A DNA stretch of 64,000 bases from Felis catus. Its lineage: Eukaryota. The notes under the pieces are model-generated. The model searched no databases and was not told the DNA's origin. It saw only the letters and a program-made list of their open reading frames with translations. The DNA lies in the NCBI RefSeq assembly GCF_018350175.1, contig NC_058368.1, positions 2,046,001 to 2,110,000 of the forward strand, in the 5' to 3' direction. Below are positions 3,766-54,661 of this stretch, in pieces. The translations under genes were made by a program, and so were the position numbers. How positions within the stretch are numbered: position 1 is the first letter of the stretch; the number at the start of each line of letters is the position of its first letter.

Positions 3766-5048
3766 CAAAAATGAACTACTGGGACCTCATGAAGATAAAA
3801 AGCTTCTGCACCGCAAAGGAAACAATCAACAAAACTAAAAGGCAACCAATGGGATGGGAAAAGATATTTGCAAATGACATATCAGACAAAGGGCTAGTAT
3901 CCAAAATCTATAAAGAGCTCACCGAACTCCACACCCGAAAAACAAATAATCCAGTGAAGAAAGGGGCAGAAAACATGAATAGACACTTCTCTAAAGAAGC
4001 GATCCAGATAGCCAACAGGCACATGAGAAGATGCTCAATGTCGCTCCTCATCAGGGAAATACAAATCAAAACCACACTCAGATACCACCTCACGCCAGTC
4101 AGAGTGGCCAAAATAAACAAATCAGGAGACTATAGATGCTGGAGAGGATGTGGAGAAACGGGAACCCTCTTGCACTGCTGGTGGGAATGCAAACTGGTGC
4201 AGCCACTCTGGAAAACAGTGTGGAGGTTCCTCAAAAAATTAAAAATAGATCTACTCTACAACCCAGCAATAGCACTGCTAGGAATTTACCCAAGGGACAC
4301 AGGAGTGCTGATGCATAGGGGCACCCGTACCCCAATGTTTATAGCAGCACTCTCAACAATAGCCAAATCATGGAAGGAGCCTCAATGTCCATCAACTGAT
4401 GAATGGATAAAGAAATTGTGGTTTAGGGGCGCCTGGGTGGCGCAGTCGGTTAAGCGTCCGACTTCAGCCTGGTCACGATCTCGCGGTCCGTGAGTTCGAG
4501 CCCCGCGTCAGGCTCTGGGCTGATGACTCAGAGCCTGGAGCCTGTTTCCGATTCTGTGTCTCCGTCTCTCTCTGCCCCTCCCCCGTTCATGCTCTGTCTC
4601 TCTCTGTCCCAAAAATAAATAAACGTTGAACAAAAAAATTAAAAAAAAAAAAAAGAAATTGTGGTTTATATACACAATGGAATACTACGCAGCAATGAGA
4701 AAGAATGAAATATGGCCTTTTGTAGCAACGTGGATGGAACTGGAGAGTGTAATGCTAAGTGAAATAACTCATACAGAGAAAGACAGATACCATATGTTTT
4801 CACTCTTATGTGGATCCTGAGAAACTTAACAGAAGACCATGGGGGAGGGGAAGGAGGAAGAAAAAAAGGTTAGAGAGGGAGGGAGCCAAAACATAAGAGA
4901 CTCTTAAAAACTAAGAACTGAGGGTTGATGGGGGGTGGGGGAGAGGGGAAAGTGGGTGACAGGCATTGAGGAGGGCACCTGTTGGGATGAGCACTGGGTG
5001 TTGTATGGAAACCAATTTGACAATAAATTTCATATTAAAAAAATACAT
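3766..5048 (+). mobile_element. 5'-truncated young carnivore/felid L1 (ORF2 C-terminus plus 3'UTR), antisense in LATS2 intron 2
   Basis: ORFs 3762..4493 and 4626..4820 encode the L1 ORF2 C-terminus, including the cysteine-rich [20 protein letters not shown]-rich 3'UTR, AATAAA and A-tail follow. The direct repeat ATCACTTGA flanks it at 3757-3765 and 5049-5057. Confidence 0.95.
4426..4651 (+). mobile_element. Young felid CAN-SINE inserted into the L1
   Basis: Full-length, CpG-rich copy with a perfect 17-bp TSD AAAGAAATTGTGGTTTA (4409-4425, 4652-4668). Confidence 0.96.
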
Positions 5049-5214
5049 ATCACTTGAAACCATTAAGAGTACAAGAAAAACTGAAACTAAATTTTATAAA
5101 ATAAAGTAAATGCTAAATTTAATTACCAATGCCAATATTAAAAGTATCCAATGATACAAAACATGACACTCATAACCAAAAAACTTATCTTTACAATTCC
5201 TTAAATCTAAATTG

Positions 5215-5366
5215 ATTTGTTTCTAGAGAGAGAGAAAGGGCATTTGTGTGCAAGCAGGGGAGGGGCAGAGGGAGAGGGAGAGAGGCTCAGTCCCAAGACC
5301 CTGGGATCATCACCTGAGCTAGAATCAAGAGGCAGACGCTTAACGAACTGAGCCACCCGGCACCCC
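5215..5366 (-). mobile_element. CAN-SINE (diverged)
   Basis: Reverse-complement head ...CTGAGCCACCCGGCACCCC and GA-rich body. Confidence 0.8.
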
Positions 5367-5387
5367 TTAAATCTATAGTTAAAGAAC

Positions 5388-5580
5388 AGGGGCGCCAGGG
5401 TGGCTACGTCAATTGAGCATCCACTCTTCATTTCAGCTCAGGTCATAATCCCAGGGTCCTGAGATCAAGTTCCTCGTCGGATTCTGTGCTGAGCGTGAAG
5501 CCTGCTTGAGATTCTCTCTTGCTCCCCGCTCCCCTGCTCGTGTTCTCTCTCTAAAAAAAAAAAAGAAAAAGAAAAAAAGA
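5388..5580 (+). mobile_element. CAN-SINE, head-to-head with the previous copy
   Basis: GGGGCGCCAGGGTGGCT head, CT tract and A-rich tail. Confidence 0.85.
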
Positions 5581-8234
5581 ACAGCTCCTTGCATAAGGAA
5601 TATTAATCTATTGGCCTTTTTTTGTATAGAAATTTTCATAAGCCTTTAGTCATGTATGTGTGAAATATTTTAGACACTATCATTTGACATATACACTATA
5701 TCATTACACAGAAAATACTTAGTCTTTTTCTAGAAATTTCTATTTAAAGATATTTCAATTAAAAACATACCCAGGAGCGCCTGGCTGGCATGCGACTCTT
5801 GCTCTTGGGATCGTGAGTTTGAGCCCTACATTGGGTGCAGAGATAACTTAAATTAAAAAAATAATTTTTTAAAATGTAGACCCAGTACATGCTAGTTACA
5901 CGGGTGTAATTCACTGGGTGAAATTCACCCAGCTGTACACTTAGGAATCATGTACTTCTCTTATGTAAATTTTGTTTTATTATGAAAAGCCTAAAAGAAA
6001 ACACTCCCTTATAAACATTCGGGCAAATATTTCCAGTTAGTCTCGGGTCAAGTAAAATGGGGAAAAATGTGTGCGCATGCATATACGATGGATAAAACGG
6101 TGCATATAAAAGTGTGTAAGACCTCGGGGAAAACCTGGAGTTTACTGCCATTCTGATTAATATTAGGACTAAAAATGACACTTAAACTCAAAATACAAGA
6201 GAACATAACTGAACCTACATTAAAAGGCAGTATAGTAGGAGACAAAGGAAAAAGGAAAGCTGCAACACTAGAAGTCTCTGTGCCTATTACACTGGATCTG
6301 ATCATCTGAGCTGTGGGAGACCGAACTCTAGAGCTACTGTTGATCCTTTCCACGCATGCTACTTGGGTTCCCGTCAGGACTTTCTGACCGGAATTCTCTA
6401 AAAGCAAAATGCATCCTGTATACAGACCAAAAAACGGTCCAAAGTGGACTGTGAGGGTGAAGGCAGAACTGTTTTACTTTACAAAGTAACACTACACACT
6501 AAAGTGATTGAACTATTTCAGGAGCATTAAATACGGCAAATGGAGTCCTTTCTGCCAGCAATTAACATAAATTAAATGTTGATGGGAACTTCACTGGTGT
6601 CACGATCCTTAATTTTACTGTATTTGTATTTTACTGTCTTGGATACAGCACCGGCTCCATTATTTCTTGCACTGTAATTATCACTAATGGATTCTGCCAT
6701 AATGAGATCCCACCTGTATTTTGGATTATTTGCTTCACTTGTTTCTTTTTACCACAGCTGAAACACAACTGCAAAGAACACCCTGCTCTGATCGCCTCTT
6801 TTGTTTGCAAGCGATTTACAGAAGATTTTAGGCTTTGCTGTTGGGTTTCAGAAGTCTCTGCGATCTTACTGGTATTTCCCCAGGACTGCTCCTTCCTACT
6901 TTCAAAACCATCAAGTTCTGTTTGTCAGGGGATAGCACTTGGCAGCGTGTTTAACTTCATATTTTCACAATGAGAAAGGTCATGCCTCTGCTGTCAGCTT
7001 CCACTGCTAAAACACTCGGCACCACATTATTCATGATCCTGTGCTTTATAAAAGCAACTTTCAACTCAACAATGCTTGCTTTACACAAGTTAATCCCAGT
7101 ATATCCCAAAGTGTCAAGGAAGTGCCCTGCAAAATAGCACGATTAGTTTCACAAACATATCATCTGAAAAATGTAAATTCTCTAGCTCAGTTCTATGGTA
7201 ATCACCTGCAACCAGAAGGCTGAGATTGCTTTTGGAAATAAGAGGGCATTGTTAGCCTTTTCCTGTGACTGTGAGGCCAGGAGTAGGTAATTAGGTTATT
7301 TCTAAGAAACTAAAAGTGCTCAAGCCATCTTGATATGCTTTGAGCATGAAATCTTACTAATTTTCCAAGGCAGCAAAAATGCCTAGCTTATTTCCATTTT
7401 CATGCAACTGTGACTTTTAAGATGACAGATGGTAACAAAGCATTAGCCTTCAGACGTCCCTTTAGAAGGCAATTACATTTTTACCAGTTCCATTTTACTA
7501 AAGACATTTTTACCTGGCCGGACACTAGTTCCATTTCACATGGTCCTGCCCCTCAACCTGGGTTTTACGTAGCTATACCAATCACGACAGGATCATAAAT
7601 GCATAGCTGTCAGTTGTGTGCTTCTATGGTATTCGTACCACCTCCTTCCTTATTAAGGTGTCTCTTATTCTTAAGCAACCGAACAGTCAGACCACACGTG
7701 TTGCCACCAGTCTGATGACCTCTCAAGCCTGCTCACTTCCCTAACATAGCCACATCTCCTCTACCAGTATACACAGCAGGAGAAAACAGAGTCTAAGAAG
7801 AGCCAATTCATGTTAATCAACCTTCCCCTTCACCAAGTAAAAAAATGCACAGACCAAAAACAAGGGAAGCCAGTGTCTTCCCCATGACCGTTCCGAATAA
7901 GCCCAAATAAACCCCAAAGAAAGGGCAAGTGTGAAAGCCCTTCACCCCTTTACACGGACAGAACAGAGAATGCACGTGGTACCACTGCAGTAGAGTTCAC
8001 AAGTGTCTGGATCCTGCGTGAAAAGGAAAAGCAGCCAAGAGACCCTTCTGGAGAGAAGGTGGAAAACAATACAATGGCACACCGCAAGGGCCTCGGATTT
8101 TGACCTGGAAACGCTTTTCTTAGTAGCTAAGTCGGGGCCTTGGAGGGGCAGCCGCAGGACCTTTGGCTGCCTCCACTGTGCTCGGACGGCTGGCTTACTG
8201 TAACTGCCCCCGCGGGAGCCTCGGGTGCACCCAC

Positions 8235-8573
8235 CTGGTCGCATCCCGCGTTCACCAATTCCTGCAGCATCTGCCGGTTTACTTCTGCAGCTGCGGAAGT
8301 GCCCGATTCATTAGCGAAAGGCAACAGGGAGTATCTGATTTCTCTCAGGGCTTTCTGGTAAGGTCCGAACTTCGGGGTGGCTCTCGTCTGCTGCTGCCGG
8401 GCAGCATCCTTGCCCCCCAGGACTTTGGCGGCCAGGGGAGCGTCACTGTTTGGTCCCACCGGCAGGCCCTGAGCGGAAGACTTGGACGGCTGCTTTAAGC
8501 CCTCTCGGATCTCCTGCAGTCGCTGGCGGCTGTTTCCAGAATAAGTCGTGGCAGGAAAAGTCTTTGGCCTCAT
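8235..8573 (-). CDS. LATS2: LATS2 first coding exon, codons 1-113 (conserved N-terminal region and start of the UBA domain); the CDS continues in exons left of the window
   Basis: The translation MRPKTFPATTYSGNSRQRLQEIREGLKQPSKSS...KFGPYQKALREIRYSLLPFANESGTSAAAEVNRQMLQELVNAGCDQ is the recognisable LATS2 N-terminus. The ATG is at 8573-8571 with A at -3. A phase-0 donor CAG|GTGGGT follows 8235, so the last 35 aa of ORF 8127..8573 are intronic read-through. Confidence 0.97.
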
Positions 8574-8784
8574 TGTTAGTCCAGTTTCCTTTTACCATAA
8601 ATACAATCTTCTTAAAGTGTTTTATTATAAAAAAAAAAAAAAGAAAAACTGTCAACAGTATCAGTTAGTTGTAAACATACTTTCAAAACAATTTCCTTTT
8701 GAAAATTTTCTTTCCTTCAATATTTGTAGTTCCTATGGAGAACCTAAAATTTTCCAGAGACTTCATTCCGAAGATCATCACTAT
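8574..8784 (-). other. LATS2: 5'UTR portion of LATS2 exon 2 (whole exon 8235-8784, 550 nt)
   Basis: The minus strand reads CCATTTTCTTTTTCAG|ATAGTG, a polypyrimidine tract plus CAG acceptor 211 nt upstream of the start codon. Confidence 0.85.
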
Positions 8785-9460
8785 CTGAAAAAGAAAATGG
8801 AAAGAACATACTCATTGATGGTCTTCACATACTGTTGACAATACTTTTCAGAAACGGGCAATGATCTTGAAAATATTCCACTTGAAAGGATTAAGAAAGA
8901 ACACATCACCTCTCAGAAATGATAAAAAGTGTTCAGCTCTAGTCGGCGCCCATGACATCTAGGGCTGTCCCAAGATGTTTCCTGTAACATGTAATCTGTA
9001 ATAAAGTAAATCTCCACAAGCTCATATTATTTACAAATATTCACCTCAGAGTAAGAACAGTAAGTAGTATTAACGGATCGTTCACTCGAAATACTTCATT
9101 ATAATATAATTTCACTTTGAAACTTGCAGCTTGAGTGTTTAGGGTTAAACCTTCCACCTGAGGTCTTGGATTTCTGGCTTGTTCCTAATAACCACTCAGT
9201 TCGTAGCACACACCTTCGTCTCTTATCTCTGTGGCTTTACTAACCCTTCCCCCGACCTGCACCTGTGGTCCTTCCATGTCTTTGCAAAGTCTGCCGTCTA
9301 AAGCCCTCCCAGACTTCCTGAAAGACGCCACAAACGTGTCACATTAAAAGCGTCCTATATCGCAAGTGAAAGAAGTTCTAACACAATGTGTTATGAGACT
9401 TTGAAGGTAACAACTCCCTGGGTTTTTTTTATAAAATGGTCACCTTCTTATCAGCATTTT

Positions 9461-9668
9461 TTTTTCAATGTTTATTTATTTTTGGGACAGAGAGAGACAG
9501 AGCATGAACGGGGGAGGGGCAGAGAGAGAGGGAGACACAGAATCAGAAACGGGCTCCAGGCTCTGAGCCATCAGCCCAGAGCCCGACGCGGGGCTCGAAC
9601 TCCCGGACCGCGAGATCGTGACCTGGCTGAAGTCGGACGCCTAACCCACTGCGCCACCCAGGCGCCCC
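9461..9668 (-). mobile_element. Young felid CAN-SINE in intron 1
   Basis: Full-length copy with a perfect 14-bp TSD CTTATCAGCATTTT (9447-9460, 9669-9682). Confidence 0.96.
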
Positions 9669-14492: not shown

Positions 14493-14728
14493 AGGGGGCG
14501 CCTGGGTGGCTCAGTCGGTTGAGCGTCCGACTTCAGCTCAGGTCACGATCTCGCGGTCCGTGAGTTCGAGCCCCGCATCAGGCTCTGGGCTGATGGCTCA
14601 GAGCCTGGAGCCTGCTTCCGATTCTGTGTCTCCCTCTCTCTCTGCCCCTCCCCCGTTCATGCTCTGTCTCTCTCTGTCTCAAAAATAAATAAATGTTAAA
14701 AAAAAATAAAAAAAAAAAGAAAAGAAAA
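14493..14728 (+). mobile_element. Young felid CAN-SINE
   Basis: Near-consensus full-length copy with a long A-rich tail. Confidence 0.95.
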
Positions 14729-18900: not shown

Positions 18901-21067
18901 CTTTTTAAAAGGGAAGGAGATTCAGAGACTTTTTTCAGCTGGAAGTCAGTCACTTTAGGGATTATCAAGCCCGACCCCTTCATTCTGCAGATCGGGATAC
19001 CTTGCTCCTTCTTAAACAGATTTACAGTCAAGACAAATTAAATGCGCTGCGTTCTCTTCTGTATTTCTTCAAGCCATTTTTTAGAGGTCAGGAAGGAATA
19101 CTGTTGAGAAGTTTTACATCATCACCATGAAATAAAATATAAAAACGGCTTTTCGAAAACTGTGTCGGTCTGGTTTTTCCAATCCAAAGCAGAACGCCCC
19201 CCCTCCCCCAAGCTTTCCAAATCCTACCCAGTGTTTGTGGCGAATTTATCAGCTTCAACACCTTCCCCCCCCCCCCCCCCCCCCACACACACACCAGAAT
19301 AGTGGGATCTAGGAGCCTAGGGCTGGCTATTTACAACACAGCATTTAAAATAACAAGTCAAAGTATTGTAGAAACACTCCCCTCCCACCAAAGGAAAGTC
19401 CCTCCCATCAACCCTGTGATTTGCTACGGAAAGAAACATGTAGAATTCCAATATACACTCAGGTCAAAACCATTTCCAACTAGATGCAGAGGCTAGTAGA
19501 ATCTTTTCCAATTCTAAAATTTCATGATTCTAGTAATTGACCTTAATAATTTTGTGTGATGTCTTCTGCAGATACTATCTTAAACGGCTTGACATTTGGA
19601 GATTTATTAAATGTTCGGCAATTTTAATTTCAAAGGAATGCTGGTGTATTCATGAAACAGTGTTCTATATACCTGGATAATGAGTCCAAATTTTATGAGA
19701 CGCTGAATAACGTAGTGTCTTGTTAATTATAATTTAAAACAGACTTTCTTAAACAGTCTCTGCATTCTTATTTTGTAAGATTGTTGTTACTACCTTACTA
19801 CAACAGCCGCTAAACAAAAAATTAAAAGATACAAAGCCTCTTAGTCTCTTGATTTAGCCCTCAAAATCAGTGGTCCATCGTGGAGGGATTTACCCCGAGA
19901 TTCAACTAAATATATGGACCAAGATGTACTTATACAAATTTCCTAACAATAAGCCATTGTTAAAGGAAGGCCCCTCATCTACTAAACTTTAAGTTTAAAC
20001 CGAACACTTGTACAAAGACAACACACGTTTTGTGACTTTCATGTCAAATTTCAGTATATTTAAGTTTCTTAGTAAAATGTGGGTAAACATTTGCCGAATA
20101 CTTTGGGAAACGCGTTCTTTGGCCCCTGAATTTTTATCTGCAAACTCATAGTCTCTGCTTAACAGCACTATTAAACGATTTTTTTTAAAGTCTAGATTAA
20201 TACTATATTGAGAGCACGCTCACTTATATCCTACACGGTGCGAAAATGTAAAAGTTCTTGTTTAACATTTTGTCATCACAAAGCTACAAATAAAGAGTAC
20301 TTCCACCGTTACGCTTGCAAGAAGAAAAAAAAAAACCTTCTAATTCGAAGGGCTCAGATCAGGTGGCCAGCAGCCCTCCAACACCGGGGCCCCCCGCGCC
20401 GTCAGGTGAGTTTCACCTCCTTTGGGGACCGGCCTTCCCCTCCTCCCCCCGGGGCACTGGGGACCCGGAATCAACAAACTACAGGTTTGCTCCAGGCTGA
20501 CACTCCCGCCCAACCCCGCGCGCCAGACTTCACCCCGAGGGAGATGCTCTTCCAGAAGTTCCGAAGGCAGGCTTGCGCAGAAGCGACTGGCAAAACTCGC
20601 CTTAACTCAGAATCCGCACCTCCGGGGTCCGGCAGGGGAGCCAACTGCACGTGAGGTTGCATCAGAAAAGACGAGCTCCAGAAAGTCGGCTAAACTAGGG
20701 CGCAGGAAAGGCGTGTTATGCAACGGCCGCCGCTCTCGCGGCCGAGAAGGCGCCCCTGAAGCTCGGGCTGCGACCCGCGAGGACCCGGAGGCACACTCGG
20801 AGAGGTCGGGGCGCGCGCCGGCCGGGCGTCGCCGGGGGCCGTGCGGGCGGCGCGGCCCGCTGGGAGGAGGGGGGGGGGGGGGACGGGCGCACGGCCCGCG
20901 AGGCCACGACGCCGAGGCCTGTGCAGGGACGACGGCGCGGCCCCCGTAGACGGCGGCGCGGTGGACGCGGGATCCCGGCGCTGTCGGGCCGCGCGGCCGC
21001 GCCCGGCCCGGCCTGGGGGTAAAAGCCCAGCTCCCCCCCGGGCCGCCCCTGCCCCGCCGGGAGCCCG

Positions 21068-21094
21068 GCCGCCGCCGCCGCCGCCGCCGCCGCC
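21068..21094. repeat. (GCC)9 trinucleotide repeat in the intron 1 part of the CpG island
   Basis: Nine uninterrupted GCC units read directly. Confidence 0.9.
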
Positions 21095-21471
21095 CGGCGC
21101 ACAACAAAGCGGCGCAGCCCCGCCGGCCGGGCGCTCGCTCCCAACTTGCCCGGCCCCGCGGACGCCGGACGGCCCGCGACGACGCGCCGCCAGCGGAGGC
21201 GGCTCCGGGCCCGAGCCGGGCGGGGGCCGTGGCGGGGGAGTGGGGGGGGGGGGCAGGGCTCAGGGCTTCGCTCGGGACAAACTTCCTCGGCCGCCCCGCT
21301 CCCCGCCCCTCGGCCCGGCCGCCCCGCCGAGTCGGGCGCCCCTCCCGGAGCCGCGGCCCGCGGCGGCCCGAGGGCGGGCGCGGGGAGCCCCAGGGCCCCG
21401 CCGGCCCGCGGAAACTTCCAGCCGCCCCGCCGCGGCCCCTGGCCGCACGCCCCCCGCCCCTGCCCCTTCAC

Positions 21472-21706
21472 CTCCTGGGGCGCGGTCTACACCCTCCGGG
21501 GCGTCCTCGCCCGCGGCTCCGGGGCCTCGCGCGCCGGGGGACCGGGCGCCGGTGGCTGGAGCTGCTGTTGGCCCCGCGGGGACGGGGGAGCCCCGGGCGG
21601 CGGCGACGCGGGCGGCGGCTGCTCCATCTTCCCGGGGCGCTCACGCCGAGGTTCCAGCGCGCAGACCCAAGTGGGACATTCGCTACATTGTTGGCATTCC
21701 ACGGGC
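21472..21706 (-). other. LATS2: LATS2 non-coding exon 1 (TSS approximate)
   Basis: Lies in the CpG island and ends in the donor CAGGAG|GTGAAG (GT at 21471-21470), followed by intronic G-runs. The sequence GCCCGTGGAATGCCAACAATGTAGCGAATGTCCCAC... resembles the mammalian LATS2 mRNA leader as I recall it (not aligned). Confidence 0.75.
21695..21700. promoter_or_regulatory. TEAD (MCAT) motif CATTCC
   Basis: GGCATTCCAC at the TSS; LATS2 is an established YAP/TAZ-TEAD feedback target. Confidence 0.55.
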
Positions 21707-21716
21707 GTCACGTGAC
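21707..21716. promoter_or_regulatory. Palindromic extended E-box GTCACGTGAC (CLEAR/USF type)
   Basis: Exact 10-bp palindrome immediately upstream of the inferred TSS. Confidence 0.6.
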
Positions 21717-23029
21717 CCCGCCTCCCGCGTCACTCTCGGCCGCATACCAGCCCGGGCGGGGCGCCTGCGGCCCTGGCTGCTCGGCGGCCGGCCCGCCCCG
21801 CTCCGCCCCGCCGCCGCTTCCTGCCTCCCGGTCGCGGCCGCCCCAGCCCGCCGCCACCTGCCCGCGGCCTCCCCGCCGGCGCTCGCGGACCTTTCTGCCG
21901 CTCTGTCACCCGCCCCCGGCTCCAGTACTGCCCCTTCGACCGCGCTGGTATGAAAGTTGGTAACTCCGTCCTTAAAGCCGCCGTTAGGCATCTCAGACCA
22001 GCCTTGGTGGAGAAAGTAAGTTAACAGGCCTGAAGGAGCCACCGAGTTACCAAACAGACGCCAGCTGCTGAGAGTAAGGGCAGAAGAGGACAGACGGCCG
22101 TTTGTCCGTGGCATCAAGTACTAAAGAAGGACGTCCGGATGTGTATCCAAATGTAATCAGTTTGAGTTCAGTGCAGCCCCACGGCCGTGGCTATTTTGTC
22201 TGCGGGAAGTGTCTCGCGATGCGCGTGTTTCAAGACTATGTGGATGGTCTCGTAGACCAGCAAGTGACTTTTGCAATCCAGCCCCTCGACTGTCTTTCCA
22301 TTTGTGAGCTCTGGATGCGGTACAGGGCATATGCAGGGATTGTGCGGAGACGTGAGCTCGTGCTTCCTGCCACGCACAGACTGCGGCAGGTGATGGTAGG
22401 GACCAGCATCGTTGTAAAAGCAAATCCAGTTTCCTTTTTCATTAACAAACTCTTGTGAAGTTTTTAAATTTTAATTTGAAAAGAAACGGTAACGAAGGTC
22501 GTCGTGTCCGGACGTTTTTCACGACCTTACCAGTCCCCGGTCTGTCCTGCTGTGCTCTCGCCTCTCTCCCTGCCACCTAGGCTTCCAGCCCTGCCTCTGC
22601 CTTAGCTCTTCCAGGGGATCTTCCCACACAGCCCTCCTGTTTTCTGTCCGCTTTGAGCTCTGGTAATGAAACCATTCTTGTGCAACTTAGAATTCAATTT
22701 TATTTTTCAGTCTTATCCCGCACTCTATCCAGGCATCTTGCGCGGTTAAGTCCCCCGCGGATAATCCGTAATTACATCCCTCTTGCCCTCACCTGTGTAC
22801 CTCTTCACTCCCCCAGCGACCTTACTTTTTCCTCCCTGGCCCCCAGCGGGCTGGGCTGGTTGACATTCTTCTTTGCGTGTGTTTTAAGGTCCCGCCCTTG
22901 CTGTCTTCAAAGATGTCAACATAATTTTTAAAAAAATGTTTTTTTGGTCAAAGAAATATTGTAAATAAAAGGAATTTAGTGGGCCTTAAAATTATGTGTA
23001 AAAACCCTTACAAAATTTTGTAATTAGTT

Positions 23030-53680: not shown

Positions 53681-54661
53681 CCTTCCTTCCTTCCTTCCTT
53701 CCTCCCTTCTTCTTTCCTTCCTTCCTTCCTTCCTTCCTTCCTTCCTTCCTTCCTTCCTTCCTTTCCTTCCTCCTTCCTTCCTTCCTTCCTTCCTCCCTCC
53801 CTCCCTTCCTTCCTTCCTTCCTTCCTTTCCTTCCTTCCTTCCTTCCTTCCTCCCTCCTTTCCTTCCTCCTTCCTTCCTTCCTTCCTTCCTTCCTTCCTTC
53901 CTTCCTCCCTTCTTCCTTCCTTCCTCCCTTCTTCCTTCCTTCCTCCCTCCTTCCTTCCTCCCTCCTTCCTTCCTCCCTCCTTCCTTCCTTCCTCCCTCCT
54001 TCTTCCTTCCTTCCTTCCTTCCTTCCTTCCTTCCTTCCTTCCTCCCTCCTTCCTCCTTCCTTCCTTCCTTCCTTCCTTCCTCCTTCCTTCCTCCTTCCTT
54101 CCTTCCTTCCTCCCTTCCTTCCTCCCTCCCTCCTTCCTCCTTCCTTCCTTTCCTTCTTTCCTTCCTTCCTTCTTCCTTCCTTCCTCCCTTCTTCCTTCCT
54201 TCCTTCCTTCCTTCCTTCCTTCCTTCCTTCCTTTCCTTGTTCCTTCCTTCCTTCCTCCCTTCTTCCTTCCTTCCTCCCTCCTTCCTTCCTCCTTCCTTCC
54301 TCCCTCCTTCCTTCTTCCCTCCTTCCTTCCTCCTTCCTTCCTTCCTTCCTCCCTCCTTCTTCCTTCCTTCCTTCCTTCCTCCCTCCCTCCTTCCTCCTTC
54401 CTTCCTTTCCTTCTTTCCTTCCTTCCTTCCTTCCTTCCTTCCTTCCTTCCTTCCTTCCTCTTTCCTTCCTCCCTCCTTCCTTCCTCCTTCCTTCCTTCCT
54501 CCTTCCTTCCTTCCTCCTTCCTTCCTTCCTTCCTTCCTCCCTTCTTCCTTCCTTCCTCCCTCCTTCCTTCCTTCCTTCCTTCCTTCCTTCCTTTCCTTCT
54601 TTCCTTCCTTCCTTCTTCTGTCCTTCCTTCCTTCCTTTCCTCCTCCTCCTCCTCCTCCTTT
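53681..54661. repeat. 981-bp degenerate (CCTT)n/(GGAA)n polypyrimidine-polypurine tract
   Basis: The plus strand is all C/T except for two G residues that I could find (54239, 54620). Confidence 0.98.

Follow-up and report, generated by a model that had tools for sequence, protein, structure and literature searches.

The cat LATS2 start-codon exon between young inverted CanSINE copies, a felid example of a common layout

We have analysed a stretch of 64,000 nucleotides from the cat, Felis catus (the window, C1:2046001-2110000 of the 2.43-Gb assembly GCF_018350175.1, contig NC_058368.1), that contains exon 2 of the gene LATS2. This exon carries the start codon of the gene and lies between two young copies of a short interspersed nuclear element (SINE) of the CanSINE type that face opposite ways. 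An earlier note on this DNA had proposed that the two copies could pair across the exon and promote its circularisation into a possibly felid-specific circular RNA (circRNA) coding for a 146-aa protein. Human data already include a circle with the LATS2 start codon, and the cat locus adds no more than a felid case of a common layout. On balance we favour the view that this is an ordinary felid LATS2 start-codon exon with long introns, whose circle would be independent of the SINEs and non-coding.

LATS2 exon 2, its introns and the human circle

The features on which the analysis depends are the following.

8784-8235, minus strand: LATS2 exon 2, 550 nt, placed by its splice-site contexts, its translation, its match to felid LATS2 and a genome match at C1:2054217-2054573
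8573-8571, minus strand: LATS2 start codon, read from the sequence; the 339 nt from here to the exon end make 113 codons
20800-21900, minus strand: CpG island that probably contains the LATS2 promoter and a non-coding exon 1 (GC content of 0.80 in 21001-22000)

Exon 2 consists of the 3' part (211 nt) of the 5' untranslated region (5'UTR) followed by codons 1-113. Its acceptor reads ...TTTTCAG/ATAGTGATG and its donor GACCAG/GTGGGT. The first 16 codons were translated by eye and the other 97 by a translation program, and the exon ends in phase 0 after Gln113, just as the earlier note had described. Over the latter 97 residues the protein matches LATS2 of Lynx rufus and Panthera tigris at 100% identity and that of dog and bear at 95-96%, so that the gene on the minus strand is LATS2. 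A paralogous kinase locus, presumably LATS1, was found at G000:C13:134568993-134597889, with 86% identity in the kinase domain and 57% in residues 1-113.

Exon 3 is located at C1:2003295-2003462 and the exon 2 donor at C1:2054234, giving an intron 2 of ~50.8 kb, most of it beyond the window. A candidate exon 1 donor (GAG/GTGAAG) was found at 21472/21471, and with exon 1 placed in the CpG island intron 1 is probably ~12.7 kb long. Circles that include the start codon of their host gene (AUG circRNAs) are abundant and conserved, have flanking introns longer than 6,500 nt and depend little on inverted Alu elements or on DHX9 (Stagsted 2019, PMC6487579). Both LATS2 introns exceed this length, intron 1 by the estimate taken from the CpG island, and the start codon (ATG 8573) lies inside the cat exon that would circularise, which is a property of the exon itself.

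Table S2 of the same work lists a human LATS2 circle at hg19 chr13:21619823-21620369, minus strand, labelled 'AUG circRNA' and with 576 ENCODE junction reads (row 4,587 of 80,056). Its length is 546 nt. A second human isoform (21619823-21620585, 762 nt, 256 reads) has the same donor (PMC6487579). Judging by gene name, strand, label and length, the 546-nt human circle is almost certainly orthologous to the 550-nt cat exon. Since human has a LATS2 start-codon circle without the felid SINEs, these elements are not needed for it and a cat circle would not be lineage-specific, contrary to what had been proposed. The idea of a single-exon circle fared better: it is plausible by this 546-nt precedent, the cat circle itself being a candidate. 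The acceptor of the second human isoform lies 216 nt upstream, and in the cat two pyrimidine-rich stretches ending in AG (TTATTACAG, ATGTTACAG), candidate counterparts of it, are found at 8960-9000 of the minus strand, ~200 nt upstream of exon 2.

Other sources add little. A circ_Lats2 is mentioned in mouse cells, without exon structure in the part of the paper that names it (PMC13326491). The passages considered of a paper on circLATS2 (PMC9015858) give neither exon structure nor database identifier, and LATS2 has 0 occurrences in supplementary files 1-3 of the 5 that accompany a paper on cat circRNAs (PMC10367386). A literature search for the coordinates of the human circle gave chance number matches only.

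CanSINE copies and their pairing across and within introns

Three CanSINE copies and two predicted duplexes between them have to be considered.

9457-9668, minus strand: young CanSINE in intron 1, sense in the pre-mRNA, 672 nt upstream of the acceptor, with an exact 14-nt target-site duplication
4426-4651, plus strand: young CanSINE in intron 2, antisense in the pre-mRNA, 3,583 nt downstream of the donor, with an exact 17-nt target-site duplication, inserted inside an L1 fragment
14495-14718, plus strand: third CanSINE, in intron 1, antisense in the pre-mRNA, 4,826 nt from the 9457 copy and its competitor for pairing within the same intron
9457 with 4426, across exon 2: 94.8% (201/212), predicted duplex of -440 kcal/mol, 4,805 nt apart
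9457 with 14495, within intron 1: 92.9% (197/212), predicted duplex of -431 kcal/mol, 4,826 nt apart

The 4426 and 9457 copies are inverted with respect to each other and identical at 201 of 212 positions by BLASTN. The 11 mismatches agree with the ~10 differences in 200 positions counted by eye before, and the 672 nt to the acceptor with the ~680 nt then estimated; the start of the intron 1 copy has to be moved from 9461 to 9457. A repeat search of the window returned the same inverted pair as 225 nt at 92%, flanks included.

The copies have the traits of felid CanSINE subfamily II, that is, a tRNA-derived head (in two of the three), an A-rich tail and target-site duplications. The tRNA-like heads called by ARAGORN were at 4431-4515 and 14500-14585, the 9457 copy not being called. 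In an alignment of five copies, those at 4426, 9457 and 37425 have the A-box TGGCGCAGT and are without a T further on, and those at 14495 and 48430 have the A-box TGGCTCAGT and the T. Subtype IIB is distinguished by a T>G change in the A-box and by an indel of a T; each of its 49 loci is confined to one felid clade or species, and all are dated within ~5 million years (Walters-Conte et al. 2014, PMC4084570). The 4426 and 9457 copies thus show the features given in the text of that paper for IIB, the youngest of the CanSINE subtypes and one limited to felids. The felid specificity suggested for both SINEs gains indirect backing from these subtype marks.

The antisense SINE of intron 2 shows in the pre-mRNA (4600-4651, read on the minus strand) a long run of T and then GGGACAG, a context that resembles a cryptic acceptor, and the antisense 14495-14718 copy should give a similar one. 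Also in intron 2, two older and diverged CanSINE-like elements stand head to head at 5240-5560; their arms (5291-5331 and 5424-5464) are 83% complementary and 92 nt apart, and were missed by BLASTN with the young SINE as query.

How unusual the inverted layout is was judged from a map of CanSINE-like matches in both introns, made by BLASTN with the intron 2 SINE as query; this map missed some older copies that are visible by eye at 5240-5850. It contains 28 matches, 25 in intron 2 (16 antisense and nine sense in the pre-mRNA) and three in intron 1. The 107 kb examined contain seven copies with at least 92.7% identity, of which five face one way and two the opposite way. The orientation of these SINEs is near a coin flip and the inverted layout is statistically unremarkable.

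Complementary and opposed repeats are indeed present in both flanking introns (201/212, -440 kcal/mol predicted). The two copies are located 672 and 3,583 nt from their respective splice sites, distances that add up to 4,255 nt, which exceeds the 2,300-nt cutoff for a proximal pair. Such pairs (inverted, at most 2,300 nt in total) are found at 45% of circRNAs versus 22% of host exons (Stagsted 2019, PMC6487579). Furthermore, the same-intron partner of the 9457 copy, at 14495, is transcribed before the 4426 copy, and pairing within an intron competes with pairing across introns and favours linear splicing (review PMC11263572). The claim that the circle is SINE-driven thus meets a human circle formed without felid SINEs, a distal pair and an equal competitor in the same intron, and is not sustained.

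Elsewhere in the window, the region 53681-54637 is a 957-bp (CCTT)n microsatellite with 247 copies and 86% matches, which accounts for the extreme GC/AT skew of this kilobase.

The open frame across the putative junction

Two upstream open reading frames (uORFs) lie in the part of the leader contained in exon 2.

8683-8778, minus strand: uORF1, 31 codons, ATG 8778-8776 and TGA 8685-8683; the 33-codon tail would be read in this frame
8443-8598, minus strand: uORF2, 51 codons, ATG 8598-8596 and TGA 8445-8443, one continuous frame that overlaps the main ATG out of frame

Frame 1 from the start of exon 2 is open for 33 codons and then reaches the TGA at 8685-8683, and the tail is exactly as the earlier note had written it. 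An open reading frame (ORF) running across the putative back-splice would therefore have 113 + 33 = 146 codons and end at this TGA, a circle-specific stop. Should the acceptor AG located 4 nt downstream be used, the exon would begin with TGA and translation would stop directly after Gln113; this choice had been expected to break the frame, and it would instead end the protein there. The 33 codons coincide with the ATG-initiated uORF1. In this AT-rich leader, with a stop probability of 0.088 per codon, 33 open codons are expected by chance with a probability of ~0.05. A uORF that overlaps the main start codon out of frame, as uORF2 does, usually represses the main ORF strongly. In mouse, the Lats2 5'UTR represses translation and mutation of its upstream AUGs (uAUGs) relieves the repression (Fujii et al. 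2017, PMC5316868). The simplest reading, by analogy, is that the open frame would belong to the translational control of the linear mRNA and not to a circle-encoded protein.

A UBA match spans residues 99-136, below the Pfam cutoffs for both UBA models, and a break at residue 113 therefore cuts the UBA domain; the 146-codon product would end 15 residues into this 38-residue match. The tail is indeed basic (seven K/R versus two D/E), and the RKLF within the KRKLF proposed as a cyclin-docking site fits the loose pattern [RK]xL[FYLIVMP] only. The stricter published form of the docking motif needs downstream residues. Chance alone would be expected to place a motif of four residues at the extreme C-terminus.

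As for AUG circRNAs as a class, their tails past the junction have a median of 10 aa, as chance would give, with conservation neither of the stop codons nor of wobble positions, and the same study found no translation in Ribo-seq, in 35 million mass spectra or with GFP-tagged minigenes (PMC6487579). With a tail that is the frame of a uORF, a UBA domain that is cut and AUG circles untranslated in systematic tests, the proposal of a 146-aa protein is disfavoured, and the coding idea for the LATS2 circle is unsupported.

The 33-codon tail was also looked for in proteins. It was found in none of the 33 read among 86 short LATS2 N-terminal proteins of the protein collection, and in none of 14 read among the longer LATS2 proteins (from the best 120 of 236 matches); both are weak negatives. 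After ...CDQ, 30 of the 33 short proteins continue with V, as expected from read-through into the intron, one stops at residue 113 and two have other tails. The single 100%-identical match, P0122 (148 aa), is genomic read-through into intron 2; that its source is 550 nt long, the same size as exon 2, is a coincidence. In seven short LATS2 N-terminal proteins (P0024, P0025, P0027, P0028, P0051, P0127 and P0130) the tail after residue 113 comes neither from exon 3 nor from read-through of the intron. Two of them belong to UniRef, P0024 (174 aa) from Mus spicilegus and P0130 (119 aa) from mouse, and P0051 is labelled Tupaia. Kinase-less N-terminal fragments of LATS2 may come from linear alternative transcripts as well.

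Competing readings and comparison with known systems

In the explanation that we favour, exon 2 is an ordinary start-codon exon between long introns and would circularise in the cat, probably at a low-to-moderate level and regardless of the SINEs. The two SINEs are probably recent and neutral retrotransposon insertions. Their pairing would at most modulate back-splicing, the 9457 copy being predicted to pair equally well with the earlier-transcribed 14495 copy of its own intron, an arrangement that would favour linear splicing. The frame of the 33-codon tail would be that of a uORF, likely part of a uAUG-mediated brake on LATS2 translation in the linear mRNA, and any circle of exon 2 would most likely be non-coding.

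Several points weigh against this explanation. The human-cat orthology is judged from gene name, strand, label and length (546 versus 550 nt), and in the cat a circle and its absence are both candidates. The pair across the exon has a slight edge in identity over the one within intron 1 (94.8% versus 92.9%) and may make a real contribution to back-splicing. The tail of 33 codons is longer than the 10-aa median, with the chance probability of ~0.05 given above. The lack of translation reported for AUG circles concerns human and mouse only, and translated circles have been reported by others (cited in PMC6487579).

Two alternatives deserve attention, each of which we consider unlikely. According to the first, the inverted felid pair materially raises back-splicing of exon 2, giving more non-coding circLATS2 and more AUG-less mRNA that skips exon 2 than in species without the pair. 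The arms of 212 nt are 94.8% identical and their duplex is predicted at -440 kcal/mol, back-splicing is promoted by inverted repeats in the two flanking introns (PMC11263572), and the intron 2 copy is without a good partner nearby in its own intron: the nearest sense copies are 77-83% identical and at least 11 kb away, and a 92.7% sense copy is located ~18.8 kb from it. Set against this are the total distance of 4,255 nt, over the empirical boundary of 2,300 nt, the equal competitor in intron 1 that is transcribed earlier, and the insensitivity of the AUG circRNA class to inverted repeats and DHX9 (PMC6487579). If it were true that the SINE pair alters circLATS2 output, nature would have done a clean experiment here, with an insertion that is lineage-specific and can be dated acting on a conserved start-codon circle. 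It would affect a tumour suppressor of the Hippo pathway and would bear on the open question of how far AUG circRNAs are driven by paired repeats or by the length of their introns.

The second alternative, to which we give an equally low probability, is that no meaningful circle is made in the cat, the SINEs being neutral and exon 2 spliced only linearly. Of the host-gene exons that form the non-circularizing comparison set, 22% have a pair of inverted Alus within 2,300 nt, and only 39% of the top human AUG circRNAs were re-found in mouse (PMC6487579). The failure to find the junction ORF among the short LATS2 N-terminal proteins read is weak evidence in the same direction. On the other side stand the human start-codon circle with its 576 junction reads (PMC6487579), the mention of circ_Lats2 in mouse cells, without exon structure there (PMC13326491), and the long flanking introns that are found also in the cat.

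A stronger form of the first alternative, in which the felid-acquired pair raises back-splicing, traps the AUG and so lowers LATS2 (Hippo) dosage in a lineage-specific manner, with a fraction translated into the kinase-less 146-aa fragment, is very improbable. Least probable of all is the full proposal of the earlier note, a lineage-specific and SINE-driven circle whose LATS2(1-113)+uORF-tail protein uses KRKLF for cyclin docking: the junction ORF of 113 + 33 codons and TGA does exist, with a basic tail and an RKLF that fits the loose pattern, but the tail lies in an AT-rich leader and in the frame of a uORF, a cap-independent initiation element is without support, the fragment ends within the UBA match, the C-terminal motif is expected by chance, translation of AUG circles has been systematically negative (PMC6487579) and the circle is present in human. 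The SINE-driven, lineage-specific, translated and cyclin-docking claims are thus unsupported and mostly disfavoured.

The explanation by an ordinary start-codon exon can be compared with five known systems. With felid CanSINE subtype IIB the SINEs share the tRNA-like head, the A-rich tail, the target-site duplications and, in the 4426, 9457 and 37425 copies, the IIB marks, an assignment made here from the text of the 2014 paper. Circularisation by inverted Alus (IRAlu; PMC11263572) is similar in having highly complementary and opposed SINEs in both flanking introns; the cat pair differs in being formed by CanSINEs instead of Alus, in being distal (4,255 nt) and in that its upstream arm has an equal partner in the same intron. 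The start-codon circles reported as translated (Legnini 2017, Pamudurti 2017 and Yang 2017, as cited by Stagsted 2019) are alike in the use of the host ATG and in an ORF that ends in the former 5'UTR shortly past the junction. This class is disputed, and the cat ORF is a prediction from the sequence. The uAUG repression in the mouse Lats2 5'UTR (PMC5316868) has its likeness in a cat leader with two ATG-initiated uORFs, one of them overlapping the main ATG; the cat uORFs are predictions. The fifth system is the human LATS2 AUG circRNA. The cat locus differs from it in a young inverted CanSINE pair that is impossible in human and in that its circle is putative, and is like it in the gene, the strand, the start codon held within the circle, the length (546 versus 550 nt) and the long flanking introns.

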